Shown here: positions 1-57,036 of the stretch, piece after piece
How positions within the stretch are numbered: the first letter of the stretch is position 1
Layout: every line of letters starts with the position of its first letter
Source: a virus
DNA length: 64,000 nucleotides
Direction: 5' to 3' (one strand)
IMG/VR virus record: IMGVR_UViG_3300017991_000064
Coordinates: 42,875-106,874 of that record
Program-made: the position numbers and the translations under genes
The notes under the pieces: generated by a model
Seen by the model: only the letters and a program-made list of their open reading frames with translations
Told to the model about the DNA's origin: nothing
Databases searched by the model: none

Positions 1-2
1 AT

Positions 3-632: not shown

Positions 633-644
633 GAGTTAATTTCT

Positions 645-2388: not shown

Positions 2389-3049
2389 ACAACGAGTATC
2401 TCATCTTACACAGATGGAAGATATTCTTTCCCACAGAAAAGCAGTTCAGCACGTAGCAGACCATCTTATTCACTTCTACCTTAATAACAACGAGGTAGGT
2501 CTAGCTCTAGCTATAGGGAAGAGAGCAGCAGAGCATGATGCAAGTAAGTTCGAAAAGGATGAATACCTAGGAATGTGTTCTGACACCAGAACCATTGCTC
2601 AGATGGGTGATGATGACAAGGGAGTAAAGATCGATCCTTGGAAAGCAATGGGTCCAGAAAAACGAAAGGCCGTGAGACTCCACTATCAAAGAAATCGACA
2701 TCATCCAGAACACTTTCCGGGTAACAGGTATGAAACAGACATGACCCAGTTGGATGTTATTGAAATGTGTATAGATTGGTATGCTAGATCTATTCAATTC
2801 AATAACAATCCTATCGAGTTTCTTGAAATAGTTAGGAACGATCGCTACAACTTCTCAGATGCCTTCTATGCCAAAGTGAAATCATGTCTGGAGTTAATAG
2901 AGGTTTTAATCTCAACCGGAATAGGGAAGGATCATCGAGCTGACTTTTGTGAAACAGAGGTGGGTGAAAAGATATTCAAGAAATTCGAGACTTTCAAACG
3001 AAGTTGTAAACTAAGAGAAAGGAGGCCAAGGCGTCATGTCCACAGATAA
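2330..3049 (+). CDS. DUF5662-like HD-type putative phosphohydrolase
   Basis: H..AV..V, HDASKF, HYQRNRHHPEHF and DVIEMCIDW motifs; AGGAGG SD upstream of 2330. Confidence 0.7.
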   Translation: MNKELREGLQQRRRKNVLTEQRVSHLTQMEDILSHRKAVQHVADHLIHFYLNNNEVGLALAIGKRAAEHDASKFEKDEYLGMCSDTRTIAQMGDDDKGVKIDPWKAMGPEKRKAVRLHYQRNRHHPEHFPGNRYETDMTQLDVIEMCIDWYARSIQFNNNPIEFLEIVRNDRYNFSDAFYAKVKSCLELIEVLISTGIGKDHRADFCETEVGEKIFKKFETFKRSCKLRERRPRRHVHR

Positions 3050-3683
3050 ACTTCAAAAGCAACTACTTGATAGGGCTATAAATGAAACCATTAATCAAGA
3101 AAAACTAGAGGGGAATAATCCATCCGCCTTGACCAAAGAAAAGCAAGAGGAAGCAATTACGAGACTAAAGGAAGCTCAGGAAGCATTAGCTCAGGATGAA
3201 AATTGGAGAGCTATGACAGAAGAAGAAAGCAACACCTGGGTAAATTGGTGTAATATCCTGGTGCCTAATAACATCAAAGAAAGCACACATTCCTTCTTTC
3301 TCAGGGGTATGAGTGAAGCCTTCGGTGAGCTGGCTCCCTCATTTAACATCTCAATCAACACCTTCCCCCAGAGGCTGTTAGAAGAATTTGGTTTGAAGAA
3401 TATCAAAACAGCCAGAGATCTGAATAAGAATGCTGACCCTGGAGTTACCTACAAGAGTAAGATTATAAAGCTTGATCTAACCAGAACAGGTAACTCCAAC
3501 CGTAAGACTACCTTTCAATCCAAGTGGAAAAATGCTCTTATTAGAGAGGTACTAAAACAAGATGCCCTTACAGAGATGGTAGTTCTTACGTGCATCTACG
3601 AGTATCGCCAGCAGTATCTAGGTTATCTACCTAACTACATACGCTACATGGTGGAAGGGTACTTTCCCGAGGTAGCAAAGTAA
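3036..3683 (+). CDS. hypothetical protein
   Basis: 215 aa ORF with AGGAGG SD, tightly packed in the operon; no motif recognised. Confidence 0.6.
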   Translation: MSTDKLQKQLLDRAINETINQEKLEGNNPSALTKEKQEEAITRLKEAQEALAQDENWRAMTEEESNTWVNWCNILVPNNIKESTHSFFLRGMSEAFGELAPSFNISINTFPQRLLEEFGLKNIKTARDLNKNADPGVTYKSKIIKLDLTRTGNSNRKTTFQSKWKNALIREVLKQDALTEMVVLTCIYEYRQQYLGYLPNYIRYMVEGYFPEVAK

Positions 3684-3695
3684 AAGGTCATATAA

Positions 3696-5312
3696 ATGAA
3701 GCTATTGAGTTTGAAGATAAAGAATCTGAAATCAATTTCAACCCTCTCAATGAAATTGAAAGATGGTGTGACATTGATTGTAGGTGACAACAAGATAGGG
3801 AAGACATCAATTTTTCAGGCTATAATGTTTGCAATCTATGGTGGTGTGAAGAAAAATCTCATTCGTCATGATCAAAAGCTCTGTGAATTAATGCTAGAGT
3901 TTGAACATGACCACCATCACTACAAGATTCAACGAACATTCTACAACCGGAAAAAATCATCTGATGCTTCCTTATGGATCGATTCAATGGATGAGCCCTA
4001 TTCATCCAGTACGAAAGTAATCAATGGTCTCGCTAAACAAAGATTCCACTTCTTCAAACTCTTTGGCTTTATCTACTATACTAAGGTTAACACCTGGTTA
4101 GTAGAACAGAAAATGAAAAAAGATCAATTTCTTTTAGAACTCTTTGACCTGGACTGTATCAGTCAATTTGTTAAAGAGGGAGAATCCCACATACGGAAGT
4201 TCAGAAAAGATATTCCAGAGTGGTACTTTGAATTTGATCCTGAAGAAAAACGAATTGAACTAGATGAGGCAAAAGAAAAGAGAGAAAAGTATACTGTGGC
4301 TCTAAACAAACTAGATCAGAAAATCAGTACACTAGATAAACTTCAGGCTAAGATTAAGTTCTATCGAAAACAAACTGAAGGGAAAGAAGTTGTAAAACCT
4401 GAAATGATCGAGGAGCTAGAAAATAAGTTGGAAGATGTCCAAAAAGAAATTGGCGCTATCAATCACCTAATGAAAGCCAAGAGTAAGATTCTGAATTTCA
4501 CAAAATCCTATGACTCAGAGAACACCTGTCCACTTTGTCACTCAACAGTAAACCTAAAGAAGGTAGCAAAAGCAATTAAACAAGATCTGGCACAGTTAGA
4601 GGAGAAGGAGGAAGAATGGGAAAAGGTCAATGATCAAATTAATGAAGCTCTCAAGAAAATGATCACAAGGGATGACCTACCAGAAATTACGAAAACACAA
4701 CTTAAAAAGAACCTTGATACCCTTCCTCTTCGTCAAAAAAGATCCAAGCTCCGCGAAAGAATGAGTCCCAACTCTGCCATAATTAGTTCTATAAAGGACG
4801 AGTTATATGCCCACAGAAAGATTCAACGTCGGATAGAGGAGTCTAACATCAATGAGCTTGAAACCTCGGTGCAATCGCTATCAAGTACCATCAAGGTAAT
4901 TAATGATACAATGAAAGCCAACCTCGTTAATATGATGAACGAATTCATGTTGGTAGCATATGAGGGTAATAGCTCTATACATCTTATTGATGGTCAACTC
5001 TATTTAGAAAACAGCAGAGGAGAGAAGATTGAGTTTGATGAGATGAGTGGAGCCAATAGCGAGATAGAAATTGTAATCTTTATCTTTGCTACATCACTGA
5101 ACATTATTACAGGAAACAGAGTACTTATAATGGATGAGCTCTTTAATACCCTAGATAAGAAAACTTTTCCTAGAGCGGTGAACCTCATCCAGTATGTTAC
5201 CAAAAAGTACTTAACTCAACTCTTCATTATCTCACATCGCAATGATTTTGAATATGACCATCTATTCACCAAATCAAAGAAAAGAGATAAGTGGGGATAT
5301 ATTTCTAACTAA
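3696..5312 (+). CDS. Rad50/SbcC/T4 gp46-like SMC ATPase
   Basis: Walker A GDNKIGKTS, coiled coils around a CPLC zinc hook, degenerate signature MSGANSE, Walker B LIMDE, D-loop LD, H-loop IISH. Confidence 0.9.
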   Translation: MKLLSLKIKNLKSISTLSMKLKDGVTLIVGDNKIGKTSIFQAIMFAIYGGVKKNLIRHDQKLCELMLEFEHDHHHYKIQRTFYNRKKSSDASLWIDSMDEPYSSSTKVINGLAKQRFHFFKLFGFIYYTKVNTWLVEQKMKKDQFLLELFDLDCISQFVKEGESHIRKFRKDIPEWYFEFDPEEKRIELDEAKEKREKYTVALNKLDQKISTLDKLQAKIKFYRKQTEGKEVVKPEMIEELENKLEDVQKEIGAINHLMKAKSKILNFTKSYDSENTCPLCHSTVNLKKVAKAIKQDLAQLEEKEEEWEKVNDQINEALKKMITRDDLPEITKTQLKKNLDTLPLRQKRSKLRERMSPNSAIISSIKDELYAHRKIQRRIEESNINELETSVQSLSSTIKVINDTMKANLVNMMNEFMLVAYEGNSSIHLIDGQLYLENSRGEKIEFDEMSGANSEIEIVIFIFATSLNIITGNRVLIMDELFNTLDKKTFPRAVNLIQYVTKKYLTQLFIISHRNDFEYDHLFTKSKKRDKWGYISN

Positions 5313-5395
5313 ATCATAGGTGCCAGGATGAAAATTTGGTACCGCTATTGAATTTGTTTACCATTATAGTAGAATCCCAAAAGGTTAAATCTCCA
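5312..5395 (+). repeat. dispersed ~75 bp intergenic element, copy 1
   Basis: 5312-5352 is identical (41/41) to the reverse complement of 44753-44793; 5320-5393 aligns colinearly with 56963-57036. Confidence 0.9.
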
Positions 5396-5421
5396 CGAAA
5401 ACTTTTATAAGGAATGATAAC

Positions 5422-7311
5422 ATGTATATAATCAAGAGTAAGAAGGGTTACCAAAGATTGGTCCCTAATGTAGAAATTGAAGAATACTTCTCGGAAGATT
5501 ATTTCATAGGTAGAAGTACCAAACAAGGGAAACATATATTTCCTGTTTGGCGAAAAGCTTTGAAAACTATCTTCAGTAAAAAGCGTGGTAAAGACCTCAT
5601 TGAGGTTATTGCTACTGGAGCTATTGGTTCGGGGAAGTCCACTCTAGCTATAATAGGATCATCTTTCATACTCTACAAACTTTTATTATTAGAAGATCCA
5701 CATGATACCTTTGATATGATCAGAGGTCAACCTATCTTCTACCTATTCTTCAATGTAACAATGGATGCCAGTGAAGAAGGAAACATTCTGGCCCTAGGGA
5801 ACCTTATACATGAAGCTCCTGTTTTTAGGGATCTAGGGGTTAGGTTTTCGAAGAATACGAAATACCCAAAACCCATCTTCCCTAAGAATATTCTACTAGC
5901 TCCCGGTTCTATGTTTGCTAAAGGTTTCGGGGCTGTTGGTAAGAATGTCATTAGCGGAATGATGGATGAGGTGAATGAATCTGATACAGACAAGAAACAA
6001 AGAAAGGCTCTCTTCACACAGAAGCGGGCATTGAAAATGTATAAAGCTATCATACGGAGAATGAAATCAAGATTTTTTGATGACCCTGATCAACCCTTCC
6101 TTAGGTACATTAAGCTCTTTCTCATTTCATCCAGACAAGAGAAAGACAATTTCCTTGAGGATTATATCGAGAAGGTAAAAGATAAGAAACATGTTATCGT
6201 TTTTGATTTCCCAGTTTGGGTAGCAAGATCCAAAAAGAAACTATGTGGGGATACATTCCATGTAGCAGTTTCTCCATTCATGGATCCCATGATAGTAAAG
6301 AAGAAGAAAGAAATTCCTGATGTTGATGGAATCAAATCATATGAAATCCCTGTAGAGTATCTTCCAGCATTTGAACTAGATGCTCTATCCGCCCTTGCTG
6401 AGATAGCTGGTGTTAGTGTAAACAGGATGAGGACCAGATTCTTTAGAAATAGAAAACTCCTCAAGGCTTCTTTCACAGAACGTCCTATCAATAGAGATAT
6501 TCTAGAACTTTCTCTCTATGATGCAATTCAGGTAGCATCATGTTTTAATATTAAGGAACTGATGAAACTCCGTGGACAAGCTATGACAGTACATATTGAT
6601 GTTGGTTTGACTGGGGATAGATTGGGCATTGGTGCTGCTATGGTGGAATCATTCAAGCACCTAACTGTTTCTCCAGATGAGGAAGAGAAGTTAAGATTAC
6701 TAAAAACAACTCTAGATCAAGAAAGCGATAGTCCTGTGGATGAGAAGAAACCAAATGAAGTACATGTACCTATAGTTCTAGTTCCCTTTGCTCTAGGTAT
6801 TCAAGCTAAAGATGAGATTCCCCTATTTAAGATTCGTGACTTTCTCTTCTTCCTCCGTGATGATATTGGAATACACTTCATCGAGGTAACTACTGATGGT
6901 TATCAATCTCGTGACCTACGACAGTTGTTAACAGTAGCTAATATTCCAAACAGAGAGTTATCCGTGGATAGAACGATGTCACATCATACAATCTACAGGA
7001 CATGGGTCTATATGGGATTAGTAAAGAAAGTGAAGAATAGAATGCTATGGAAGGAGGAAAAAGAGTTACTAGAGTTGATGACAGATGCAAAGATTGATCA
7101 TCCCGATGGAGGCAGTAAGGACCTTTCTGATGGAGTAACTGGAGCTGTAGCAAATCTTTTAATACAGAAACAGAGTAGAATGAACATGAGTCCACAGGCT
7201 AGGAAGGATCTCTACAGAATGATGCTAAACCAAGGAAGGTCAAAGACCACAGGATTGATGGATATGATGAGGCCCAAAAGGGGTGGTAACCCATTAAACT
7301 ATAAAAAATAA
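5422..7311 (+). CDS. terL: terminase large subunit
   Basis: Walker A GAIGSGKST, Walker B GMMDEVNE, coupling motif ISS, RNase H-like nuclease HIDVG...TTDGYQS...KIDHPDGGSKDLSDGV. Confidence 0.9.
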   Translation: MYIIKSKKGYQRLVPNVEIEEYFSEDYFIGRSTKQGKHIFPVWRKALKTIFSKKRGKDLIEVIATGAIGSGKSTLAIIGSSFILYKLLLLEDPHDTFDMIRGQPIFYLFFNVTMDASEEGNILALGNLIHEAPVFRDLGVRFSKNTKYPKPIFPKNILLAPGSMFAKGFGAVGKNVISGMMDEVNESDTDKKQRKALFTQKRALKMYKAIIRRMKSRFFDDPDQPFLRYIKLFLISSRQEKDNFLEDYIEKVKDKKHVIVFDFPVWVARSKKKLCGDTFHVAVSPFMDPMIVKKKKEIPDVDGIKSYEIPVEYLPAFELDALSALAEIAGVSVNRMRTRFFRNRKLLKASFTERPINRDILELSLYDAIQVASCFNIKELMKLRGQAMTVHIDVGLTGDRLGIGAAMVESFKHLTVSPDEEEKLRLLKTTLDQESDSPVDEKKPNEVHVPIVLVPFALGIQAKDEIPLFKIRDFLFFLRDDIGIHFIEVTTDGYQSRDLRQLLTVANIPNRELSVDRTMSHHTIYRTWVYMGLVKKVKNRMLWKEEKELLELMTDAKIDHPDGGSKDLSDGVTGAVANLLIQKQSRMNMSPQARKDLYRMMLNQGRSKTTGLMDMMRPKRGGNPLNYKK

Positions 7312-7324
7312 CAGGAGGAACACT

Positions 7325-7759
7325 ATGGATGACATGACTAAGGTAAAGGAACCCAAAGACATTAATGACACAGAGAACACAGATGATCTTCTCACAAAGG
7401 AAGACCTAGCTAAGGAATGTAATGAGGAACTCTGGGCACTGAAACTGGTGACTGGGGAAGAAGTTCTAGCCAAGGGGTACTGGAAGGTACCTAAGGAAGG
7501 GCTCAATTCAATCTTCATTATTACGGGATCAATGGTAAGGTTGATGGCTAACCCAGTCTTGGTCAGAGGAAACCTAGCTTTTCAAAAGACTTATGTACCG
7601 TGGGTACACGAAGCTCACACGCAGGAGATTAATTCCTGGTTCGTAATCTCTTCCAACAATCAAGTTTCTAAGAAGGCCACTGAACAGTTCTACAAAACTA
7701 CAACCGGTCTCAGTATTCATGGTACCAATGAGATTCCATCCAATGGGGGTCACCAATGA
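7325..7759 (+). CDS. Sm-like (KLxxGEE) protein of T4-like phages
   Basis: ALKLVTGEEVLAK...LMANP...YVPW pattern; AGGAGG SD. Confidence 0.5.
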   Translation: MDDMTKVKEPKDINDTENTDDLLTKEDLAKECNEELWALKLVTGEEVLAKGYWKVPKEGLNSIFIITGSMVRLMANPVLVRGNLAFQKTYVPWVHEAHTQEINSWFVISSNNQVSKKATEQFYKTTTGLSIHGTNEIPSNGGHQ

Positions 7760-8214
7760 GAAAGTTTACTTACTTTTTGCTGCTCATTTTCTTTTTATTA
7801 GTTGGCCAGAGTTTCAGAGTAAAGGCTGAGGTTTTTGTAGTAACCAAAGTGAAGTACCCTGAGAAACCACATAGAACGTATTACCTCCGTTCAGTTACTA
7901 AGCCAATCCATAAACTCTCTATGGTTCAGAAGGATATTAAAGGCCTGTATCTGGAGATGAATGATCAGATTGAGGTAGTTTTAAGTTTTGAGAAACCTGG
8001 TGATACAGAAATCTTCGTATATCTGAGAGTTGAAACGATGGGGGAGAAGAGAACACCGGCTGGAGACCAGAGAACTGTTTACGGGTGTACATTTATCAAT
8101 GGGGCAAGTTTTGGAGGCTCGGGTAAATTTGATGGTGGATTCTTCAATAAAACATTAAAACTGGGTGATAGGTTCTACTTATCCCTACGCAAAGTTTCAG
8201 AGGAGGATAGCTGA
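7756..8214 (+). CDS. putative secreted/periplasmic beta-rich protein
   Basis: N-terminus MRK + hydrophobic FTYFLLLIFFLLV + VKA cleavage-like site. Confidence 0.55.
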   Translation: MRKFTYFLLLIFFLLVGQSFRVKAEVFVVTKVKYPEKPHRTYYLRSVTKPIHKLSMVQKDIKGLYLEMNDQIEVVLSFEKPGDTEIFVYLRVETMGEKRTPAGDQRTVYGCTFINGASFGGSGKFDGGFFNKTLKLGDRFYLSLRKVSEEDS

Positions 8215-8216
8215 TC

Positions 8217-8894
8217 ATGTACGAAAATATAGAAATGATTCCGCAAGATGTCAGGATCATCGAACAGCCCGTACTAAAGAATATCAGAAACTCGGAGTTT
8301 GTAGCTAGGTTATCACACCGCTCGGAAGAAAGAATCTCCGACGATTCTTACGTGGCTCTCATGGATAAAATGACACGTTTGAACCACCAGGCAGCCTTTG
8401 AGTTCATGGATATGACCGTAATGTTTACTACGAACCGTGGAGTATCCCATGAACTTGTCCGACATCGCCTATGTTCCTTCCTGCAAGAGAGTACGAGATA
8501 CATCAATTTCGACAAGAAGATGAAGGGTAAGATTCCTATTATCCGCGGGGATTACCCAATGTATATGTTAAAGATTCTGGATGACATAGCATATACATAC
8601 AAGAAGATGGTTAACGAAGGTATCCCACCACAGAAAGCAAGAGATATCCTACCAATGTCATTGGCTACCAGGATAGCTGTTAAAACCAATCTTAGAGAAT
8701 GGGCATATTTATTCCACATGAGATTATTCAACAAGAAAGCTCATCCTCAGTTTAGAGAGTTGATGTCAATGCTATTGAATAAGCTAGTAAACAAACCAGC
8801 CTGGTATCCGGTAGTAAACTGCCTACTTCAGAATACCTATGGATACACAGAAGAACAAATCGAAGATGCAAGGGGGGTCTGTCTCAATGAGTAA
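8217..8894 (+). CDS. thyX: FAD-dependent thymidylate synthase
   Basis: RGVSHELVRHRLCSFLQESTRY (RHRxxSxxQxSxR signature), ARDILP, NLREW, AHPQFR. Confidence 0.95.
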   Translation: MYENIEMIPQDVRIIEQPVLKNIRNSEFVARLSHRSEERISDDSYVALMDKMTRLNHQAAFEFMDMTVMFTTNRGVSHELVRHRLCSFLQESTRYINFDKKMKGKIPIIRGDYPMYMLKILDDIAYTYKKMVNEGIPPQKARDILPMSLATRIAVKTNLREWAYLFHMRLFNKKAHPQFRELMSMLLNKLVNKPAWYPVVNCLLQNTYGYTEEQIEDARGVCLNE

Positions 8895-9723
8895 TGTCAC
8901 ATATGTATTCTATGAAAATGGTGTCAAGATGCTTGGGTCTACTAACAATGAATTTGATGTGGGATCAGATGCTATAAGAGATGAACTTCTCCAACGACTC
9001 CAATCAACAATCAGCCATGTTTCCGAGTTAGAATTCCAGGTGAAAGATCTTGAGGCCTCAAAGAACCAGGCCTACAAGGAAAGGAATTTAATGGTTCAAT
9101 TCCTCACCTTCATCTACCCATCATATCTTACTAAGCACCCCGAAGATGATCTTTCCTGGGAACAGGACTGGATGAACATTGTTGTGGTTGATGGTCCTGG
9201 TGGTCAAATGAGTTGGCACATCCATGATTCTGAAATGCTTCTCTTCTCCCATCTGGGGTACAGAGAGAATGATTGGGATGGGCATACCACGGAGGATAAG
9301 TACAAAAGGTTAGAGCATTGTTGCCGAGTAGAGATTCAGAGACCACTAATTGAGAATCCACCGATCGTTAAGTCTCAGGGTGATCGTGATAAAGTAGAAT
9401 TAGGTCTTTGTCTACAGATGATCGATAAAGATAACATCTTTAAGGCCATCGTTCAAGAGATATTCAAACAGAAAGCTGCAGAGAGGGGCTATGTTCTCCC
9501 CGATCAGGACTCTGATATTTCTATGATCAACGGCGAGCTAGAAGAGAAATTGGTTCTTATGGGATTCCAAACAAAGGTGGAAATGGCAGTTCATCGTATT
9601 CCCTACCCCTTTGATAAGAACAAGAAAACCAAGGTAGAGCATGTTGATGTGTCAGTCACTGAAGGAATTGATAAATTCATAGGTGCTATTAAAGGAGCTA
9701 AGGAGGAAAAGAAAGATGAATGA
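8887..9723 (+). CDS. WDGH-motif phage protein with an extra C-terminal domain
   Basis: YKERN..V..L, GQMSWHI and WDGHTTEDKYKRL motifs. Start placed at ATG 8887 (GGGGG SD, overlaps the thyX stop) rather than 8839. Confidence 0.6.
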   Translation: MSNVTYVFYENGVKMLGSTNNEFDVGSDAIRDELLQRLQSTISHVSELEFQVKDLEASKNQAYKERNLMVQFLTFIYPSYLTKHPEDDLSWEQDWMNIVVVDGPGGQMSWHIHDSEMLLFSHLGYRENDWDGHTTEDKYKRLEHCCRVEIQRPLIENPPIVKSQGDRDKVELGLCLQMIDKDNIFKAIVQEIFKQKAAERGYVLPDQDSDISMINGELEEKLVLMGFQTKVEMAVHRIPYPFDKNKKTKVEHVDVSVTEGIDKFIGAIKGAKEEKKDE

Positions 9724-10723
9724 TACCCAACTCATTCAATTGGCGGAGGAAACATTCGGTGGTGCACTTGATGTTATGAAACGAAAGAATGCTGACTACA
9801 CAGCAGGTATGAAGGAGTATGATGCTCTTCTAAACTTTAAGTTGATTGCTTCATTGTTGAATATCTCTCCCTATAAGGTCTGGGGTGTTTATGCTATGAA
9901 GCATATGCTTGCGATCCTTAAGTTCACCAATACTGGTAGGGTAGAAAGTGAAGGTTTATTTGGAAGGGTTGATGACCAGATGAACTATGCCATTCTCCTC
10001 AAGGCACTGGCTACAGATGAGAAGAATGGTGTCAGAATGACCATTGATCTCGAAGAGTACTTCAGAATTCATATGGCAGAAAATGGGGTTCAGAACGATG
10101 ACATCATTGACGATGATGAACCAGAGATTGATCAAGAGTTTATCCAGACGAGATTAAATACAACTCTTGAAGCATTGAAGGAAAGTCTACAAAGGTCAGA
10201 CTCCATTCCTGTTGATGTAAAGAAAATGATCGAGAAAAAGATACAGAGTATGGAAGAGATGGTAACTACACCCTCCACGTCAGATGTGGAAGGAGTTAAG
10301 GTAGTTCCTCCACCTGAGGAGGATACGCTAGTTATTGTACCCATCTCGGATACCCTAGAGGCATTGCTAAAAAGGTATCAAATGGACAAGGAGTCTGTGG
10401 AGAAGACCATTATTCCAAACATCATTTCGATGTTCGAAAGGTTTCAGCAGAAGTTTGGTGATGGCAGAAAATGTATGACTAGAGTAGAAACGTTTAAGAA
10501 ACCCAATAACCTTGAGAAAAAGGTTAGATATTCTGCTTACGTGGTCTTGTACTTAAAACAGGATGAGCATCCTTCTGGAGTACAGATTGACAGAATGGGA
10601 TTCGGGGTTTATGACAGTATTCAAGATGTCACGGTCGCTGGAGAGATGGTGAGTATCGCATTAGAGCGGGTTCATAAAAAGTGTAAAATTGATATCGAAG
10701 TAGCCGAAGCTGTACAATTTTAA
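9716..10723 (+). CDS. DUF1599/nucleotide-modification-associated (MazG-like all-alpha) domain fused to an unknown C-terminal domain
   Basis: KRKNADY...NF...KH..AI...ESEGLFGRVDDQMNYAILL pattern; AGGAGG SD before ATG 9716. Confidence 0.6.
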   Translation: MNDTQLIQLAEETFGGALDVMKRKNADYTAGMKEYDALLNFKLIASLLNISPYKVWGVYAMKHMLAILKFTNTGRVESEGLFGRVDDQMNYAILLKALATDEKNGVRMTIDLEEYFRIHMAENGVQNDDIIDDDEPEIDQEFIQTRLNTTLEALKESLQRSDSIPVDVKKMIEKKIQSMEEMVTTPSTSDVEGVKVVPPPEEDTLVIVPISDTLEALLKRYQMDKESVEKTIIPNIISMFERFQQKFGDGRKCMTRVETFKKPNNLEKKVRYSAYVVLYLKQDEHPSGVQIDRMGFGVYDSIQDVTVAGEMVSIALERVHKKCKIDIEVAEAVQF

Positions 10724-10977
10724 TGAACATGAGTAGAATACCAGAAGCTTTATCTAATGTAATGATGTGGCTATCTGCCTTGAAGGTTAGAGGTCGGATT
10801 TTCTTCCACTGGACAACAAAAGGTAAGGACCTTGAATTCACCCTACGCATTCCAGCCAATGAAGCCATAGCAGTCCCCGCAAAGGAACTTGCTAATCTGA
10901 ACAAAGCACGGAGTGTTAGTGAGAAATTAAGGATCCTTAGACGTATTGCTCTTCTAGTCGAGAATAGAAGAAAATAG
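10723..10977 (+). CDS. small basic hypothetical protein
   Basis: 84 aa ORF coupled to the upstream stop (TAATG). Confidence 0.5.
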   Translation: MNMSRIPEALSNVMMWLSALKVRGRIFFHWTTKGKDLEFTLRIPANEAIAVPAKELANLNKARSVSEKLRILRRIALLVENRRK

Positions 10978-11005
10978 CCTTTTTATAGTATATAAGGAGG
11001 TTCTC

Positions 11006-11374
11006 ATGAGAATGTGGATGGTAGATCCAAAGATAATGTGTAGACAACATCTGTTGGGTGAGCATAGAGAGATGCATGCTCTACGAGGTATGATTATGAA
11101 AGGACTCAGTCTCGATGGCTATGTCCGTAATAATTGTCTTCAGTTTAGGGACATCAAGAAACGCCATGATCGAATTGTTGCTGAAATGATTCGTCGTGGT
11201 TATAATCACTATTCTCCACTCGAAGAAATTCCTGATATGGTCACGATAAAATATAGCTACTTCGTTCAGGAATCAAAGGTTGATGTTGAATCTTCACTAC
11301 AGGATCTACTCCAACGTTGTGTACGATGTTCTAAACGATTCAAAAAGTTAAGGAGGAATAATGGAGAACAATGA
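11006..11374 (+). CDS. pyrimidine-dimer DNA glycosylase / endonuclease V family (DenV-like)
   Basis: MRMW..DP..MCRQHLLGEHREMH and RHD..VAEM..RGYNH.SPL; AAGGAGG SD. Confidence 0.85.
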   Translation: MRMWMVDPKIMCRQHLLGEHREMHALRGMIMKGLSLDGYVRNNCLQFRDIKKRHDRIVAEMIRRGYNHYSPLEEIPDMVTIKYSYFVQESKVDVESSLQDLLQRCVRCSKRFKKLRRNNGEQ

Positions 11375-11675
11375 ACACCTACTGAACAGGAATTTTCACT
11401 TTCACAAAACAAAAGACAAGGAAGGGATTCCGATCATCATGATTATGTCAGTTGAAAATATGGAGGGGACCTTCAAGGGAATAGATCCCCCACTAGAACG
11501 AAATGCAGAATCTGATAAGATCGGAATCCCCAATCCCAAAACTGGAGAAACAGAGTGGATAGAATATTCTCCAGCACCAGACCTAGCACTGAAAGTCGTG
11601 GGGTATCTCACAGACAATGACATGAGAGCGCTAATGGAAGTAATCCCACGAGATATTCATCTCGAGTACATGTAG
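11361..11675 (+). CDS. hypothetical protein
   Basis: 104 aa, AGGAGG SD. Confidence 0.55.
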   Translation: MENNEHLLNRNFHFHKTKDKEGIPIIMIMSVENMEGTFKGIDPPLERNAESDKIGIPNPKTGETEWIEYSPAPDLALKVVGYLTDNDMRALMEVIPRDIHLEYM

Positions 11676-11683
11676 GAGGAATC

Positions 11684-12049
11684 ATGAACTTTATCCGGGT
11701 AGGTTTTCATTTCATGGTGGACAATGCGATCCCTATCCTTTACATTCTTCTTGCTCTCCATATCTTTCTAACTACCCGAAGAGTCTTTTACTTAGAGGGT
11801 AAGATTCGAGAGGTGGAAATTAACCTGGAAGATGTTAAGAGACAATTGGATTACTACGTTGTCTCCACCGCTGATTTCGAGAAGTTCAAGAGTGAAGTAT
11901 ATCTGATTGTGGACAACTTCTCAAGGTACCAGGAAATAACACGTAGAAGTAACGGAAAGTTGAGTCACCGGGGGTTAATGAATTTTCTCAAGAGTCAGCT
12001 CGAGATAGAAAGCTTACAGGCCAAATGTGAAGTTAGTGATGATGATTAG
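11684..12049 (+). CDS. membrane-anchored coiled-coil protein
   Basis: Hydrophobic IPILYILLALHIFL followed by a heptad-rich segment; last gene of the + strand block. Confidence 0.55.
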   Translation: MNFIRVGFHFMVDNAIPILYILLALHIFLTTRRVFYLEGKIREVEINLEDVKRQLDYYVVSTADFEKFKSEVYLIVDNFSRYQEITRRSNGKLSHRGLMNFLKSQLEIESLQAKCEVSDDD

Positions 12050-12486
12050 AATCTAAAGGTGAATGAAACACTCTTCTTTCCATATTCAGTTCCAAAGGGG
12101 CTTACGACATTCCCAAGTTGTAAGCCTTCTTTTTTGTGTAGTTTGGTTAGGATTCTGTTCTCAAGGTGTGATGTAATACGATCACTCATCTCCAAACTCA
12201 TTTCACGTCTCAATGATCTCTTCAGATATTTTCCAAAGGCACCTAATCCCCTTGTCTTCATTTCGTATCTATGGTTCGTAATATAATCACCCGTTGCACT
12301 ACACCAATGCTTTAACCTTTTGTACATTACAAGTTCGGTAGCAGTATAGTATTTAGTAGCTCCACTTTCATCTGCTCTCTTCATCGCTTTTGTCGCTACT
12401 CTTATGAATTGTGTAAATATCAGTAGTACAATTAGATTGAAGTAATTCACAAGTACATCATTTAATAGATCACCAATTAATTCCAT
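12046..12486 (-). CDS. hypothetical membrane-anchored basic protein
   Basis: N-terminal hydrophobic helix; G-rich SD; its stop overlaps the convergent gene. Confidence 0.5.
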   Translation of the reverse strand: MELIGDLLNDVLVNYFNLIVLLIFTQFIRVATKAMKRADESGATKYYTATELVMYKRLKHWCSATGDYITNHRYEMKTRGLGAFGKYLKRSLRREMSLEMSDRITSHLENRILTKLHKKEGLQLGNVVSPFGTEYGKKSVSFTFRF

Positions 12487-12498
12487 TCAAACCCCCCT

Positions 12499-12570
12499 TG
12501 CCAGAATGACAAAACAGTACCAAGATTTCATTTGTTAGGTTTACCAGTGGAAATCCTTAACTTAAATCTC
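12499..12570 (+). repeat. dispersed ~75 bp intergenic element, copy 2 (diverged)
   Basis: TGCCAGAATGA...GTACC...ATTTGTT...AGTGGAAATCC...TTAAATCTC is colinear with copy 1, and shares CAGTGGAAATCCTTAACTTAAA exactly with copy 3. Confidence 0.75.
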
Positions 12571-12757
12571 AACGACCCATATAGGGAAAAATTTGACCCT
12601 TTATTTTATCCCCTTTTCTCCTTCTCTTTAATTTCCTGGTGGTCATCCACATTGAGATCATTTGAATTACTACCATCGCTGAGACAAGAATGGTTCCACC
12701 CATAAGAATGTAAGCAATGGTTTTGAGACTCCATTCGAGTTCAATTATTGTCATCAT
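12569..12757 (-). CDS. small single-TM protein with a basic C-terminal tail
   Basis: TM segment IAYILMGGTILVSAMVVIQMI followed by RKLKRRRK; AGGAGG SD supports a start at 12757/12754. Confidence 0.5.
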   Translation of the reverse strand: MMTIIELEWSLKTIAYILMGGTILVSAMVVIQMISMWMTTRKLKRRRKGDKIKGQIFPYMGR

Positions 12758-12774
12758 ACCTCCTATCAACGGAA

Positions 12775-12802
12775 ATGGGATAGAGAATGAACTCTATCCC
12801 AT
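12775..12802 (-). terminator. hairpin downstream of the holin-like gene
   Basis: Perfect 11 bp inverted repeat ATGGGATAGAG-N6-CTCTATCCCAT; weak U tail. Confidence 0.55.
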
Positions 12803-12842
12803 AACCATGCTCCAAAATATCGTAACGTATGTACGACCTGAA

Positions 12843-13316
12843 TCAGTTACCGATGTTGTTCACCTTGAACACATTCTGTTCCACTAGATGCTCAATGTAT
12901 GCACCGGTATCACCCATGAACTTATCAAGGAGATCCATCTTTTCCTTACCAAGAATTCTCTTGGCCTCGCTGATAACATTCTGTTTGATGACCTTCTTCT
13001 CTGCATCGGTTACCTTAGCACCACCATCGCTATCAGGTGCCTGGGCTTTCTTGTACTCCTTAACCAATGTTTGTTCTGCTGACATGACCAAAGTTTCGAT
13101 TAGTTCAGCCAGGTCCAGCTTGGTTTCGTAGTACTGTATCTTCTCACCCTGTGCCTCTGCGGCAGCTTTCTTCGCTTCCATATCTTTCTCATAGGTATCA
13201 ACGTATTTCTTCACCTTTGAGGAGATCATGGGAAGAAGAACAATAATAGCTGTTTTGATCAACCAGTTCAGTACGAGACTAACGGCCTCTGATGATAGCC
13301 ATTCCATTGTGTTCAC
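12843..13316 (-). CDS. holin-like protein (LL-H type architecture)
   Basis: One N-terminal TM helix and a LVMSAEQ...EKK...IE.LVE..V pattern; close to the endolysin. The true start is probably ATG 13307. Confidence 0.6.
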   Translation of the reverse strand: MNTMEWLSSEAVSLVLNWLIKTAIIVLLPMISSKVKKYVDTYEKDMEAKKAAAEAQGEKIQYYETKLDLAELIETLVMSAEQTLVKEYKKAQAPDSDGGAKVTDAEKKVIKQNVISEAKRILGKEKMDLLDKFMGDTGAYIEHLVEQNVFKVNNIGN

Positions 13317-13362
13317 CTCCGTTTATGTATGTAATCTAATGGTTTACTTATGATTCCTTGTG

Positions 13363-13587
13363 TCACCTCCGTCCCATGTAATATTTGCATCTAATGCATC
13401 TTCCTTTCTGTTTATCCTTTAACCCTTTCCTAAAGTTCCATTTGCCACAATTGTTGCATTTCCGCATGGTAGCTCTTTTCTTAATGGCCCACTTCAAAGA
13501 ACTAAATGGCGCTTTCACAATTCCTACAACTAGATCCTTCGGACTAATGAAGATTCCATGCCCTCGTCTATTGTTAAGAAATTTCAT
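13363..13587 (-). CDS. small basic zinc-ribbon protein
   Basis: CNNC...CIRC motifs; coupled to the endolysin stop (ATGA overlap). Confidence 0.55.
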   Translation of the reverse strand: MKFLNNRRGHGIFISPKDLVVGIVKAPFSSLKWAIKKRATMRKCNNCGKWNFRKGLKDKQKGRCIRCKYYMGRR

Positions 13588-14159
13588 TCCTTCCCCTCCT
13601 TTACGAACTTGGGAAGATAGATAAGATTCAATTTGTTGATTCGATTACTAACTCCGTAGTAGATACTATAGGTCCATATCCTCTTCCGTACGAGAGCAAT
13701 GTTGTATTTATCTCTCATGTCATTAAAGAAGGCTGCAAATCTTTCTACAACAACATTGCTGTAATGATCCTCTCCTCCCAAACAATCTTCTACCGCCTTA
13801 AGTGTAATGGGACCTATGAGTCCATCCATTCTTAGCTGAAGGTCATACTTAATGTTGAGACATTGTTGCATGAGACGAATGGATGTATGTGGTGATGCAT
13901 TGTAGGCAAAGTCCATTACACAGATATCTAACCCTGATGGTAACTCTGAGCATTTGGCCTTTTGCCATCGTGGCATGTATACCTCCTCGAATACTGTTGA
14001 CATCCTCAAGGTTTTATTCTTAATCTGTTCAGCATACTGAGGATACGCTCGTGATGAAACGCCATACATTGTTGTGCCACCTGGATCATCAGGATCATTA
14101 CTCCAGTATCCCTCAAATTCCATTAGAACCGGCCAAAATTTCTTTTCGTTCCCTCTCAT
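13584..14159 (-). CDS. endolysin, glycoside hydrolase family 108 with a peptidoglycan-binding segment
   Basis: EGYWSNDPDDPGGTTMYGVS catalytic motif, D.AYN and DGLIGPITL. Confidence 0.9.
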   Translation of the reverse strand: MRGNEKKFWPVLMEFEGYWSNDPDDPGGTTMYGVSSRAYPQYAEQIKNKTLRMSTVFEEVYMPRWQKAKCSELPSGLDICVMDFAYNASPHTSIRLMQQCLNIKYDLQLRMDGLIGPITLKAVEDCLGGEDHYSNVVVERFAAFFNDMRDKYNIALVRKRIWTYSIYYGVSNRINKLNLIYLPKFVKEGKE

Positions 14160-14181
14160 TGTGTCACCTCCATTTTATGTT

Positions 14182-14637
14182 TCATTCTGGTGTAAACCAT
14201 TCTTTTATGATTTTTGACCAGGTAAGTTGATTACTTTCATTAGGCATTCCCATCACTAGATTCGTATGGTGTGAAAATAATTGGAGATACATATTATAAA
14301 GTGTGGTGGAATACATAAGCACTAATGATCTGGGATTTAGCATGATAAACTGATCTAGAATAAATAGATCTGCCTTAACCTCATCCTTACTAAAATTCAT
14401 CTCATGGGTCATAGCTGTTGAGATAATTAATAGGTTAGGGTGGGAATCGGTAGCTTCATATATTGTATCAAAACGTTCAATCTCAAACTGTAGATTACAA
14501 TTGATGGAACATACTTTGAGAAGTTTTAGAAAGAATTTGTAGTCTACATAGTCATCATACAAATCATCATAACCAGATTCAATAAAAACAGCAGTTCTGA
14601 TAGAACCATTGGATGTTTCATTCATAATGTTTAACAT
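14182..14637 (-). CDS. degenerate receiver-like (pseudo-REC) protein
   Basis: Alternating beta/alpha pattern TAVFIES...HPNLLIISTAM...LVLMYST that resembles a receiver fold, with Ser at the phospho-Asp position. Confidence 0.4.
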   Translation of the reverse strand: MLNIMNETSNGSIRTAVFIESGYDDLYDDYVDYKFFLKLLKVCSINCNLQFEIERFDTIYEATDSHPNLLIISTAMTHEMNFSKDEVKADLFILDQFIMLNPRSLVLMYSTTLYNMYLQLFSHHTNLVMGMPNESNQLTWSKIIKEWFTPE

Positions 14638-14701
14638 ATCACCCCCATGATAATGGTAATTTTTAATACCTACCGAATTTCTGGGGCGATAGGAATAGCG
14701 G

Positions 14702-15397
14702 TTATATTTTTATCTGCCGTTTCCTACGCTTCTTCTTTTTTCTCTTCTTTCCAACCCCGATACCAGGTGGATCCTTGTGTACAGCATAGTAACCTAAGGC
14801 TATGGCATCTGCTGTATCATGAGGAAATTCATCAGGGTCTATGTCATACTCTGATGAAAGGATGATCTTAACAACCTGCTTAACCATGATCTCTTTTCTG
14901 AGTTTCTTATCCCTTAACTGATACTTCTTTGATTTGGATGAAAACTCTTTGGGAATCATAGCTCCTATATGTCTACTCTTAGCTGATGGTCCTACCTTAA
15001 TCAGTTTCACTCCTGGAAAGTAGAGGTGGAAGAGTGAGAAGTAGAGACCATTGAGTTCAGCTAGTTGTGAGAGAACTTTCCTACCTAAGGTATAAATGTA
15101 GTCATCAATATATACTCTTGTGATATTAGCATAGTGCTTTTTGACTGTAGAGATCCATCGGCGAATCATTCTGATGATAATCTCAGGTGTCATTCTCGAG
15201 ACTCCTAATTCAACCTCTTTATCGATCTCTAGGTTCTCGAAATGAATTGTGTAATGATCATAGTATGGTTTACGATCTTTCTTCCGTTTCTTAAGATTCA
15301 GATAACCAAAGTCAACGATTTCCTTGGTGTCCCAATCGAATATCGCAAATCCCATGTTATTCAAACCAGTATCTACCGCTAATACTAGATTACTCAT
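14702..15397 (-). CDS. RuvC-like Holliday junction resolvase
   Basis: VLAVDTGLNNMGFA, VYIDD and HDTADAIALG RNase H-fold motifs; basic C-terminal tail. Confidence 0.82.
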   Translation of the reverse strand: MSNLVLAVDTGLNNMGFAIFDWDTKEIVDFGYLNLKKRKKDRKPYYDHYTIHFENLEIDKEVELGVSRMTPEIIIRMIRRWISTVKKHYANITRVYIDDYIYTLGRKVLSQLAELNGLYFSLFHLYFPGVKLIKVGPSAKSRHIGAMIPKEFSSKSKKYQLRDKKLRKEIMVKQVVKIILSSEYDIDPDEFPHDTADAIALGYYAVHKDPPGIGVGKKRKKKKRRKRQIKI

Positions 15398-15398
15398 A

Positions 15399-15531
15399 TT
15401 GCCTCCGATGCTGTAATGTGGATGTAATGATCATAATAAAAAGAGAGGATACCTGCTCAAAACCAACGATTCATCACAGGTATCCACAATACGGTAGGTG
15501 ACAAACGAACCAAACCATTGATCGGAGGCAA
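15399..15531 (-). promoter_or_regulatory. structured leader of the RuvC-like gene (anti-SD helix enclosing a terminator-like hairpin)
   Basis: An 11 bp perfect IR (15399-15409 / 15521-15531) covers the GGAGG SD. An inner 9 bp IR (15447-15455 / 15477-15485) is followed on the minus strand by TCTCTTTTT. Confidence 0.6.
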
Positions 15532-15540
15532 AACGACCAT

Positions 15541-16047
15541 TTAGATCTGTTCATCATCCGGTAGGAAAACATTTTCAATTGCTGAAATGGAGGCCTCGAT
15601 TCGTGAAGCCATAGATTGGGCCTTGTCCATCATCTGTTCTCCGTTAGTGATTAGATCAAGAGCATTCATTATTCTTTTATGAACCTCACCCATATGAGCA
15701 TTCTTAGGAATAATGGTAATACAATTTCTACCTCGTAGTTCCTCGAGTATGAAACTTTCTGAAACACAAGTGTAAATAACAACTGGGGTGGTTACTCCGG
15801 AGTCACGAAGTTCAATGAGAAAATCCAAGCCAGCTCTACTGTTACCATTGATTCGGATATCGAGCACCAGAAGATCATGTGTCTGAACTTTCATACACTC
15901 TCTTGCAGTGAGAACATCCATTGCCCAATCTACCTGGAGCTTTGCATAATCATCTGGTACTATTTCCTCCAGATATCTTGTCCAGATTCTTCTCATAATG
16001 TGTTCATCTTCCATGAATAGGATACGATATTTTCCATCCTTTGTCAT
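15541..16047 (-). CDS. CheY-like response-regulator receiver protein with a C-terminal helix
   Basis: RILFMEDE acidic pocket, DLLVLDIRI phospho-acceptor Asp, GLDFL, PVVIYT switch Thr and IPK conserved Lys. Confidence 0.88.
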   Translation of the reverse strand: MTKDGKYRILFMEDEHIMRRIWTRYLEEIVPDDYAKLQVDWAMDVLTARECMKVQTHDLLVLDIRINGNSRAGLDFLIELRDSGVTTPVVIYTCVSESFILEELRGRNCITIIPKNAHMGEVHKRIMNALDLITNGEQMMDKAQSMASRIEASISAIENVFLPDDEQI

Positions 16048-16058
16048 AGTTTCACCCC

Positions 16059-16499
16059 TTAAACTCCAATGAAATACTTAATTAGAAGTAGAGAGACAGC
16101 ACCAAGGATACCCCAAAGATACTTGGAGAAGTGTTCCTTAAAACGATGCTTCTTATCTTCCTTAGTCTCTCTAGCTTCAGTATTCTTTTGTACCTTCTGA
16201 AACAGGTCGAACTCGTTAATCTTTTCCATTAATGCACATTGTCCGGTCATACAGGTATGCATCTGTTTCTTTTCAAGGTCTCTAAGAACCTGACGAACAG
16301 ATTTCTCAAACATCTCAATGTTGTGCTTGATGTTGGTAAACTCTAGTTCGTCATCTTTACTCTGCAATTCCATCTGATGAATCTTATTTTTAAGAGCCTC
16401 AATCCCCTCAAGGAGTTTTTCTAGTCTTTCAGGTAACCCTGACATCTGACCCATGAATTGATTCATCTTATCTTGTATTGTAATAGGATCACCTGGCAT
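16059..16499 (-). CDS. coiled-coil protein with a C-terminal TM helix (XhlA/holin-like architecture)
   Basis: Heptad-rich N-terminal part and terminal YLWGILGAVSLLLIKYFIGV; lies directly after the fibre genes. Confidence 0.55.
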   Translation of the reverse strand: MPGDPITIQDKMNQFMGQMSGLPERLEKLLEGIEALKNKIHQMELQSKDDELEFTNIKHNIEMFEKSVRQVLRDLEKKQMHTCMTGQCALMEKINEFDLFQKVQKNTEARETKEDKKHRFKEHFSKYLWGILGAVSLLLIKYFIGV

Positions 16500-16534
16500 T
16501 CTAGCTATCCTCCTTTTCTTTCGTCTGTAGTTGT

Positions 16535-16566
16535 AAAGGGGGGGGCCAGCCCATTAGACCGGCCCC
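16535..16566 (-). terminator. GC-rich hairpin after the 1545 aa fibre gene
   Basis: Minus strand GGGGCCGGTCT-AAT-GGGCTGGCCCC followed by CCCCTTT. Confidence 0.6.
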
Positions 16567-16581
16567 TGGTAATTCATTCCG

Positions 16582-19500
16582 TTACGGGTTACTTGCTTCT
16601 GTTGCCGTCCATGTTATTTCTCTTGAACCACCAGTATTGTCAACAACATAGTAAATGAACCCATCTTTATCAGCTTCCTGAACCCCAAATGAGCCACCTA
16701 TATACATCCATGACATACCACTGTAATATGATTTGGGAGTAATGGTAACTATAACATCATCACTACCAAATGCAGTGCTAAAAGAAACTTCTGTTGTTGT
16801 GTATGTACCCATACTGGCATTTATCTCATCTGTTCCACTCTTGACAGTAGGAATCACAAGTTCAACATCATCAATCTTGTATACACCAGTAATGTTGATA
16901 TTACCGTCCACATCAAGAACTTCAGCAGGTGCAAGATCATTGATACCAACCTTACCCCCCATGATTGCCATAGTGCTTGCTTGTGTAAGTGTCGGTGTTG
17001 TATTATAGTCTAAACTGAAACCAATTGAATACTGAGCATCTGAATCCGTAGTACCTACAATTATTCCGGCTCCTAATGCTATAGAATTTGCACTTCTAGC
17101 CGTGTTAGATGCTCCCAATGCTACAGAATTTGCACCAGAAGCAGTTGACCCGCTTCCAATTGAAAGTGAATAAGCACCAGTAGCATCAGCCTGATTGCCA
17201 ACAGCAAATGAGTATATGCCAGATGCTTTTGTGTTATATCCCAACGCATTGGAAAGAAAGCCGATATTGGCATCATCCCAGTCTGTAGATGAACTACGAC
17301 CTGCTCTAAAAGCTCCTTTTGACTTATCAAAGAAAAATCTATAGTCATGGTCAGAATCACCATCATCGGCAAGTTGCGGTGAACCCCATACAAAATCATC
17401 AGTTGAATATGTTACTTCACTGGAGTTTGCCCTGACAACAGTACCGGCTTTTTCCCAGTATGAAGTTCCACCGCCACCGGCAGCAAGTTCAGCAAGGGTT
17501 TTATCCCCTGTAACTCCGTCTGATAGTACAAGATTTCCACTGCCATCTTGGAATAGGTCAAATGAGCCAGAACCACCATGAAATGCCGTTGCTTCAATAG
17601 TTCCTGAAACTTCCAGTGTTCCAGATGGGGGGTTGATTGTATCTGACCTCAAGGCTGTTGCTTCAACAGTACCACCTACAGAAAGCTCATATGAGGGAGT
17701 CAGGTCTGCAATACCAACCTTACCTCTCATAATTGCTAAAGTATTGTCCTGAGAAAGAGTTGAAGATGAAGCAGCAAGATTGATAAGCATTGAGTTATCT
17801 GCACTACTATCAACAGTAGCATTACAACCCAAAGCAACACCATTACCCCCGTTGGCATTATTACCATAACCAAGAGCAACACCGCCCCAACCTGCAACCT
17901 CACACTGATAACCGATAGCAGTTGCATAATTGTTTGTAGCCTGTGACTGATACCCCATAGCTACAGCAGCATCAGCGGTAGCATCAGAAGCATATCCAGC
18001 GGCAAAAGCATAACTGTCACTGGCAGCACAATCATCACCGAAAGCAGCCGACCATGATCCTCTGTTAGCATCATCCCAATTCACAGAGTTACAGTACCCA
18101 GCCCGGAAAGCAGCTTTACTATCATCAAAGAAAAACCGCCTGTCTTTGGTTGCGTGTATCTGTCTGTTAAGTGTTGGAGAACCAAACACAAAGTCATTAT
18201 TGTAGGTTGTATCTGATTCCCTGACCACATCTGAATCTTCCTCAAAGACACCACCTGCTACTGCTTCACTTGTCCATTCTCCAGAAGCATCATCATAGGT
18301 TAAAACATCATTATCAGAAGGATTTGATACATCTACATCAGATAGATCATCAAGTGTTACTGATGAAAGTATTGTATTAACCTCATCCGTTAAACCTACA
18401 TACTGACCCTCAAGATAAACAGCTTTCAAAGTACCTTCGACTTCGACTGATCCGGCATTAAGATAAAGTTTTTGATTTGCTACACTATTATCAAAAATAC
18501 CGTAAATCAATGAAGTATCACGAGCGTTTGATTCACTATCACGAGGATAAATGTCAATAAAGAGTTTATTACTCCCCGTTTCATAATACCCTGCATCATT
18601 ACCAAGAAAGATATTATTTGATCCGGTAGTGTTAGTATAACCAGCACGATAACCTAATGCTGTATTAGCATTACCAGAGGTAATATTTGTCAAGCTATTA
18701 TACCCGATTGCAGTATTTTTATTACTATTACAATCAGCTAATGCTAATGAACCTATAGCTGTATTCTCATCTCCGGTGGTCACAGTATTTAATGAGTTAT
18801 AACCTACTCCAACATTACTGAACCCCTCGGTGATTTCCGTTCCAGCATAAGCACCTATTCCGGTATTATTATAGCCACTGGTAACATCTTGTAGAGTATA
18901 GCTTCCGATACCTATATTGCTCTGACCCGTTTGAGTAAAATTACCAGCCTGAACACCAAGAAATAATGAAGACCCAGAACCTGTGTAAGTATGAAGCAAT
19001 CTTTCACCATTCTGGGATATAACTCCTACATATTGCCCTGATGTAGTAGGTAAACTTGCATATCCAGTAATTTCAAGAGAATCAACCTTAACATTGCCAA
19101 CATTATTATTGACAATATCATCTCCATCAGCATCCCAATATGTAGTACCTGCTACTGCTTCACTTGTCCATTCTCCAGTTCCAGAGTCATAAACAAGAGC
19201 CTCACCGTCCTCTGGGGAAGCAACATTGACATCACCAAGATCATTCAAGTCAAGATCAATAGCAGCAATAGCGGTTTCGATTGTGGAATCCGCTTCCGCT
19301 TTGGTATAGGTTTCTGATTCAGTGTAATAACGATTGTCCAACTGTCCATTGTCAAGTTCCGTCTGCGTGTAAACCTCTGTAGAGTTGTAACTGTAAGAAT
19401 CTATTACACCTTCAATCTCGGCATCCGTTCTGATCTTGCCATCAATGACAGCCTGAGAGTAGGTATATGCTTCGATGGTACTGTCTGTTTGAGCTTTAGT

Positions 19501-34905: not shown

Positions 34906-34977
34906 GATTTTTAAGTTAAGGATTTCCACTGCTAGGATAAACAAATTAAACCTACCCACCAAATTTTCATCCTAGCA
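34906..34977 (-). repeat. dispersed ~75 bp intergenic element, copy 3
   Basis: The reverse complement reads TGCTAGGATGAAAATTTGGT...AATTTGTTTA...CAGTGGAAATCCTTAACTTAAA. Confidence 0.85.
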
Positions 34978-44752: not shown

Positions 44753-44793
44753 TTCAATAGCGGTACCAAATTTTCATCCTGGCACCTATGATT
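44753..44793 (-). repeat. dispersed intergenic element, copy 4 (5' half)
   Basis: Exact 41 nt reverse-complement match to 5312-5352. Confidence 0.9.
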
Positions 44794-56962: not shown

Positions 56963-57036
56963 GTGCCAGGATGATTCTTTGGTACCCCTATTGAATTTGT
57001 TTGTCATCATAGTAGATTCCCTAAGGTTCAAATCTC
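56963..57036 (+). repeat. dispersed ~75 bp intergenic element, copy 5
   Basis: GTGCCAGGATGATTCTTTGGTACCCCTATTGAATTTGTTTGTCATCATAGTAGATTCCCTAAGGTTCAAATCTC; roughly 85% identical to copy 1 by eye. Confidence 0.9.

Follow-up and report, generated by a model that had tools for sequence, protein, structure and literature searches.

An intact single-domain receiver beside a predicted tail-anchored coiled-coil protein in the genome of a novel myovirus

The single-domain receivers CheY, Spo0F, DivK, and CpdR share one fold and the same five active-site residues and have no output domain; in chemotaxis systems, single-domain receivers are established as phosphate sinks. In RssB, the EutV/ANTAR regulators, and PorX, a long helix runs on continuously from the last receiver helix (α5) and is followed by an output domain. 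Phage proteins also touch host two-component signaling, as with Rap-Phr of phi3T/SPbeta, which acts on Spo0F, and PIT4 of phage LSL4, but these are phosphatase-type or inhibitor proteins and not receivers. PIT4 is the product of an early gene and disturbs the two-component signaling of the host (PMC10714779), viromes are reported to carry two-component genes such as narL (PMC9636769), and gut phages carry Spo0A effector domains without a receiver (PMC10294663). Receiver folds also occur in phages apart from two-component operons, as in the cREC receivers (PF20274) of jumbo phages, which keep their catalytic aspartates (PMC7824862). Here, we analyzed a 64,000-nucleotide (nt) stretch of phage DNA (hereafter, the window), corresponding to bases 42875–106874 of the IMG/VR record IMGVR_UViG_3300017991_000064, in which the gene at positions 15541–16047 of the minus strand encodes an intact receiver and lies beside the gene for a predicted coiled-coil membrane protein. 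Unlike CheY, Spo0F, DivK, and CpdR, this receiver is encoded by a phage of the lytic type that has no kinase, and it has an extra stalk of ~35 residues and a GxNC motif. Unlike RssB, EutV, and PorX, it ends after the long helix. Full-text literature searches found no paper in which a phage receiver is connected with lysis genes or with a coiled-coil membrane partner.

The phage receiver and its family

The protein, 168 amino acids (aa) in length, matched PF00072 (Response_reg) with an E-value of 3.6e-12 and a score of 46.9 bits (47.1 bits in the genome search) against a gathering cutoff of 30.2, and its residues 9–126 covered profile positions 1–110 of 111. With the family alignment as input, AlphaFold produced a model that had a mean predicted local distance difference test (pLDDT) score of 89.5 and displayed the standard order of five strands and five helices. 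When the model was compared with known structures using Foldseek, many solved receivers were matched with a probability of 1.00, and PhoP, KdpE, PmrA, HemR, and CheY superposed on it with a root mean square deviation of 2.2–3.0 Å over ~125 residues. The five catalytic residues DD, D, T, and K define a true receiver (PMC12632262), and the corresponding residues were found at the strand ends of the model: E13-D14 after β1, D63 after β3, T93 at the end of β4, and K115 after β5. D63 was aligned to the Asp in the LLDIRL motif of MaeR. The last helix, α5, was unbroken from residue 119 to residue 161, and only this helix follows the receiver domain before the stop codon, making the protein a single-domain receiver. 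The initial annotation had described a CheY-like receiver with all catalytic residues, an additional C-terminal helix of ~35 aa, and no DNA-binding output domain, and all three features were recovered here. Judged from the profile match and the model, the receiver is genuine and catalytically complete, with phosphorylation itself being predicted. A heptad pattern was present in its stalk as well (p about 0.01). RssB, the EutV/ANTAR regulators, and PorX align with the receiver over 146–166 columns, compared with ~125 for receiver-only alignments, in keeping with the extended helix; RssB was also its best NCBIfam match, a weak one at 28.9 bits, which is below every equivalog cutoff.

A phmmer search against 1.84 billion representatives returned 84 matches at E-values up to 0.001, and the receiver shared no more than 40% identity with any of them. 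Thirteen representatives of 144–168 aa formed a rare subfamily in which a single receiver has a GxNC motif ahead of β5 and a tail that continues for 39–57 residues beyond the Lys position, and a compact receiver-plus-stalk family was thereby defined for study. Residues A48, R81, T93, and N108 were invariant, near-invariance was seen for P88, G106, and C109, and the full catalytic quintet was kept in 8 of the 13 members, this receiver included. The cluster sources of 10 members were all metagenome assemblies (Logan/JGI), with contigs of 16.4 kb or less. No relative was detected when IMG/VR was scanned with the receiver, P0002, P0087, and alignment A2, nor in GTDB scans that covered 185,579 prokaryote species, represented by a single genome each. 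The tblastn searches of INPHARED with the receiver, P0085, and P0005 gave either no match or generic regulators alone, from records that were unannotated or bacterial. A metagenome scan yielded 19 loci, each encoding an ordinary regulator of two domains in which the family motif was missing.

It is very improbable that the protein is an enzyme of the cREC type, that is, a divergent receiver that would process cyclic nucleotides or ADP-ribose derivatives as a counter-defense, as proposed for jumbo phages. The retention of the catalytic aspartates is a property of such phage receivers too (PMC7824862), and sub-threshold cREC_REC matches were seen for the family member P0005 and for P0014, an outgroup from the phmmer search. 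However, the phage receiver fits the classical PF00072 profile above its cutoff and had no match to cREC_REC (PF20274) at E-values up to 0.1, and its neighbors are the coiled-coil membrane protein and a RuvC-like protein, with no adjoining NAD or ADP-ribose enzyme.

The membrane neighbor and a candidate contact switch

The gene for the neighboring 146-aa coiled-coil/transmembrane protein (ccTM; 16059–16499, minus strand) comes first in the direction of transcription, is separated from the receiver gene by 11 nt, and has AAGGAGG as its Shine-Dalgarno (SD) sequence. Residues 8–102 of ccTM had a heptad score of 0.70, compared with 0.45 in shuffled sequences, and none of 2,000 shuffles reached this score; the heptads were clearest up to about residue 85. 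A single C-terminal transmembrane segment was found at residues 128–146, and a K/R-rich flank lies before it. These features bear out the coiled-coil protein with a C-terminal transmembrane segment that the initial annotation had placed here. Because the K/R-rich flank precedes the C-terminal transmembrane segment, ccTM is predicted to be tail-anchored, with a coiled coil that faces the cytoplasm and could reach the cytoplasmic receiver there. ccTM belonged to no Pfam, PHROG, or NCBIfam family and had no match to a holin, antiholin, or spanin family, nor did it have a tblastn match in INPHARED; in ESM Atlas, its feature score was 0.93 with DUF7201 and with hypothetical viral proteins ~130 aa long. 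A u-spanin reading of ccTM was also considered and was rejected, as the protein has neither a lipobox nor a signal peptide.

Upstream of the pair, a GC-rich 11-bp hairpin (16530–16575, minus strand; −21.3 kcal/mol, z −2.26) lies just 3′ of the gene for a 1,545-aa fiber protein; it lacks a good U-run, and its role as a terminator is uncertain. Downstream, the receiver gene is followed by a hairpin at 15435–15492 with a U-run (−19.5 kcal/mol, z −4.38). Because stable hairpins occur on both sides, ccTM and the receiver constitute a discrete, bracketed two-gene accessory unit. Recent horizontal transfer of the pair was unsupported, with a GC content of 0.38–0.40 against 0.41 for the genome.

Domain searches across all 106,874 bp of the genome detected neither a HATPase_c, HisKA, or Hpt domain nor another receiver, and when two hybrid kinases served as phmmer queries against every open frame of the genome, only the receiver was matched. 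The absence of a histidine kinase, which had been claimed for the window, therefore extends to the complete genome. Since the phage has no kinase, any phosphorylation would have to draw on acetyl phosphate or on a kinase or Hpt protein of the host.

We give about even chances to the possibility that the receiver is a host-phosphorylated protein-contact switch that operates late in infection, on the cytoplasmic side of the membrane, together with the neighboring tail-anchored protein. In this mechanism, D63 of the receiver would be phosphorylated by acetyl phosphate or by a histidine kinase or Hpt protein of the host, and the phospho-receiver would then signal by contact through its α4-β5-α5 face and its amphipathic stalk of ~43 residues, with the co-encoded ccTM as the most plausible contact partner. 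Late in infection, the inner membrane would thus carry a switch that depends on the state of the host, and the candidate outputs of this switch are lysis timing, the exclusion of a second infecting phage, and the muting of a host pathway. Within this scheme, we infer that the receiver is phosphorylated, what it pairs with, when it is expressed, and what, if anything, it targets. Known phage eavesdropping involves quorum-sensing receptors and peptide signals, and an intact receiver with a membrane partner would represent a different, largely undescribed route; if the scheme is true, a virulent phage senses host physiology without encoding a sensor.

Several observations weigh against this contact switch. 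The position after the catalytic Lys (K+1) is Asn in the receiver, where Pro is usual, and the switch position K−3, which is usually aromatic, is Ile. The putative pairing of ccTM with the receiver is based only on adjacency and heptads, and late expression is presumed from strand and position, with no promoter identified. Within the family, P0004, P0007, P0038, P0085, and P0087 (5 of 13) each lack at least one phosphorylation residue, and these degenerate members imply that phosphorylation may be dispensable for the core role of the family. The residues lost in these five belong to the acidic pair, the phospho-Asp, or the Lys, with the stalk and the GxNC motif kept (alignment A5).

According to the standard fold topology, the best-conserved residues of the family would lie on the α3-β4 and α4-β5 loops. 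Because these are away from the active site, and because the quintet is lost in five members, the common role of the family seems to reside in a protein surface and the stalk, with phosphorylation being a regulatory layer that some members have dropped. Taken to its end, this leads to a phosphorylation-independent scaffold in which the fold and stalk would serve as an adaptor or oligomerization module, for the phage sigma factor or for a membrane complex, and the active site would be a relic. R81, N108, G106, C109, and P88 are indeed better conserved than the acidic pair, D63, and K115, the phage does encode its own sigma factor, and pseudo-receivers are common in bacteria (PMC12632262). However, retention of the full quintet in 8 of 13 members and the invariance of T93 suggest continued selection on phosphorylation, and we consider such a scaffold unlikely but still a reasonable alternative. 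If phosphorylation is dispensable, the family would form a natural series from receiver to pseudo-receiver.

The same degenerate members bear on the proposal, made in the initial annotation, that the phage reads or drains a host phosphorelay. The intact active site, the missing output domain, and the lack of a phage kinase are in keeping with this proposal, and they would also suit a phosphate sink or decoy comparable with those of chemotaxis, in which the receiver competes for a host kinase or Hpt protein so that an envelope-stress, defense, or motility pathway is silenced late. However, the loss of phosphorylation residues in 5 of the 13 members argues against a family-wide sink role, even as the stalk and the GxNC patch are conserved, and a sink would need neither a conserved stalk nor a membrane partner. 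Draining of the phosphorelay is therefore an unlikely function of the family, and the part of the proposal that holds better is reading through protein contact, as in the contact switch described above.

Placement relative to the lysis genes

On the minus strand, the order of transcription is tail fibers, ccTM, receiver, spacer, RuvC-like protein, orphan protein, endolysin, zinc ribbon, and three single-pass membrane proteins. The receiver gene lies 1.4 kb upstream of the endolysin gene on the same strand, and the hairpin with its U-run, the RuvC-like gene, and the orphan gene stand between them. Because the receiver is part of its own bracketed unit, with the RuvC-like and orphan genes before the endolysin gene, it is near the lysis genes but outside the lysis cassette. 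The description of this locus as a lysis region is thus correct in that an endolysin gene is nearby, but the label is loose, and a role of the receiver in lysis timing was not supported, proximity being the sole link to the lysis genes. The proposed coiled-coil pairing with the membrane protein fared better, as the topology is compatible, heptads occur in both proteins, and the two genes are only 11 nt apart, whereas the gating of lysis through this pairing again has no link beyond proximity. Signal-controlled lysis, in which the phospho-receiver would bind ccTM, a holin, or an antiholin and the time of lysis would follow the signaling state of the host, can draw on the shared strand, the short distance to the endolysin gene, and the compatible topology of ccTM; however, given the intervening hairpin and genes and the lack of a holin, antiholin, or spanin family match for ccTM, we regard it as improbable.

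In the lysis inhibition of T4, the holin T is paired with the antiholin RI, which senses in the periplasm. The T/RI system shares with the present locus the concept of a membrane-protein partner that tunes lysis timing to a signal, although there is no homology, and the putative sensor here would be cytoplasmic and of the phospho-receiver type, in contrast to the periplasmic RI. A two-component-type lysis inhibition, in which the receiver and ccTM would form a phage membrane switch that reads a host kinase (signals of envelope stress or superinfection, for example) and tunes the triggering of the holin, is a conjecture to which we assign little probability.

The 143-nt spacer between the receiver and RuvC-like genes (15398–15540, minus strand) had been predicted to be a structured leader, and this prediction was upheld by the fold of the whole spacer, which had a minimum free energy of −52.7 kcal/mol (z −5.25). 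An 11-nt anti-SD sequence, UUGCCUCCGAU, starts 10 nt past the receiver stop codon and pairs with AUCGGAGGCAA, which contains the ribosome site of the RuvC-like gene, and the resulting anti-SD/SD helix encloses the terminator-like hairpin at 15435–15492 and then the U-run. The RuvC-like gene is guarded, in this predicted structure, by the anti-SD helix together with the terminator-like hairpin. The spacer RNA matched no Rfam family. A sigma-70-like site is present at 15460–15433 (minus strand), from which a transcript without the anti-SD sequence could arise; such sites were not above chance in the region, and the T4-type late promoter TATAAATA was not enriched.

The gene after the spacer (14702–15397, minus strand) encodes a RuvC-like Holliday junction resolvase with a K/R-rich tail. 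This assignment, already made in the initial annotation, was supported by a match to phrog_159 (E-value 1.9e-9) and by the RuvC-like motifs AVDTG and HDTADAIA, which are readable in the translation. The protein had no Pfam RuvC-family match at E-values up to 0.1 and no tblastn match in INPHARED, and its E-value against the NCBIfam RuvC model was 0.013 (15.4 bits, with a cutoff of 163 bits).

The next gene (14182–14637, minus strand) encodes an acidic orphan protein of 151 aa that had been claimed as a pseudo-receiver. It had no homologue among 5.8 billion clusters and no Pfam, PHROG, or NCBIfam match; when it was compared with the receiver family, hhalign gave a probability of 0.3, and hmmsearch with its filters off (--max) gave no signal. 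An AlphaFold model made without an alignment was unusable (pLDDT 47). The ESM Atlas model had a predicted template modeling (TM) score of 0.71, and its structural neighbors, at TM scores of 0.57–0.68, were LytTR, ANTAR, and Spo0A-type regulators, stand-alone receivers, and other flavodoxin-like folds. The pseudo-receiver claim therefore lacks sequence support, and what is left is a weak lead from the model that the protein possibly has an α/β fold of the CheY-like or flavodoxin-like kind.

The endolysin (13584–14159, minus strand) is a GH108 enzyme with a PG_binding_3-like C-terminus, as previously claimed: it matched PF05838 (E-value 1.1e-14, 55.2 bits, cutoff 21.2), phrog_315 (E-value 3.9e-25), and NF040573 (E-value 2e-12). 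The start of the following gene (13363–13587, minus strand) overlaps the endolysin stop by 4 nt (13584–13587), which suggests translational coupling. This gene encodes a basic 74-aa protein (isoelectric point [pI] 11.1) without a family match, and the zinc ribbon claimed for it agrees with the CxxC-x17-CxxC pattern (CNNC-x17-CIRC) read from the translation.

Three single-pass membrane proteins complete this end of the minus strand. The 157-aa protein encoded at 12843–13316 has an N-terminal transmembrane segment (residues 13–31) and a helical charged domain, and it was the only one of the three with a lysis-family match, to the "holin" family phrog_36209 (E-value 4.9e-4); it had no tblastn match in INPHARED. 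The earlier description of this gene as holin-like is consistent with the single transmembrane segment and this weak match, but with an N-terminal transmembrane segment and a helical domain, the protein could equally be a holin or an i-spanin. The 66-aa protein encoded at 12569–12769 (minus strand) has a single transmembrane segment (residues 17–35) and a strongly basic C-terminal tail (pI 10.7) and is a small holin candidate. The last gene of the minus-strand block (12046–12486) encodes a 146-aa protein with an N-terminal transmembrane segment at residues ~7–28 and no Pfam, PHROG, or NCBIfam match. No lipoprotein o-spanin with a lipobox was found in 11900–16600.

Genome setting

The record comprises 106,874 bp and has a CheckV completeness of 100%. 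The record has a terminal repeat of 100 bases or more, with 1–100 recurring at 106644–106743, 231 bases before its end; because of this repeat, the genome is probably closed or terminally redundant, although it is labeled "linear" in IMG/VR. In the window, the minus-strand block, from ~64000 down to 12046, is structural and encodes the major head protein (phrog_138, E-value 4e-32), the tail sheath, baseplate pieces, and two giant fibers, and the plus-strand block (1–12049) encodes DNA metabolism proteins and a sigma factor. The major head protein had no near relative in IMG/VR and shared at most 30% identity with those of INPHARED phages, and a blastn search with the window DNA from 12000 to 17000 gave zero matches. 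The phage is thus a new, uncultured, tailed myovirus, and the receiver region forms the far end of the strand that carries the late, structural genes in its complete genome. Among the listed relatives of the endolysin, those with a named host belong to phages of Gram-negative hosts, and strong GGAGG ribosome sites precede the genes of the region; from these two features, the host is likely to be a Gram-negative bacterium that uses SD sequences.

The phage RNA polymerase sigma factor is encoded at 1645–2388 (plus strand; phrog_351, E-value 1.1e-25). Late transcription may be driven by this factor, and this would account for the failure of both sigma-70 and T4-type late promoters to stand out. 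The plus-strand block also contains genes for an SbcD-like and SbcC-like nuclease pair (645–1664 and 3696–5312; phrog_100 and phrog_77), a thymidylate synthase (8217–8894), and an endonuclease V-like protein (11006–11374). In addition, an intergenic element of ~75 bp is dispersed in both orientations at 5312–5395, 12499–12570, 34906–34977, 44753–44793, and 56963–57036, and the copy at 12499–12570 lies between the last two membrane-protein genes at the lysis end.

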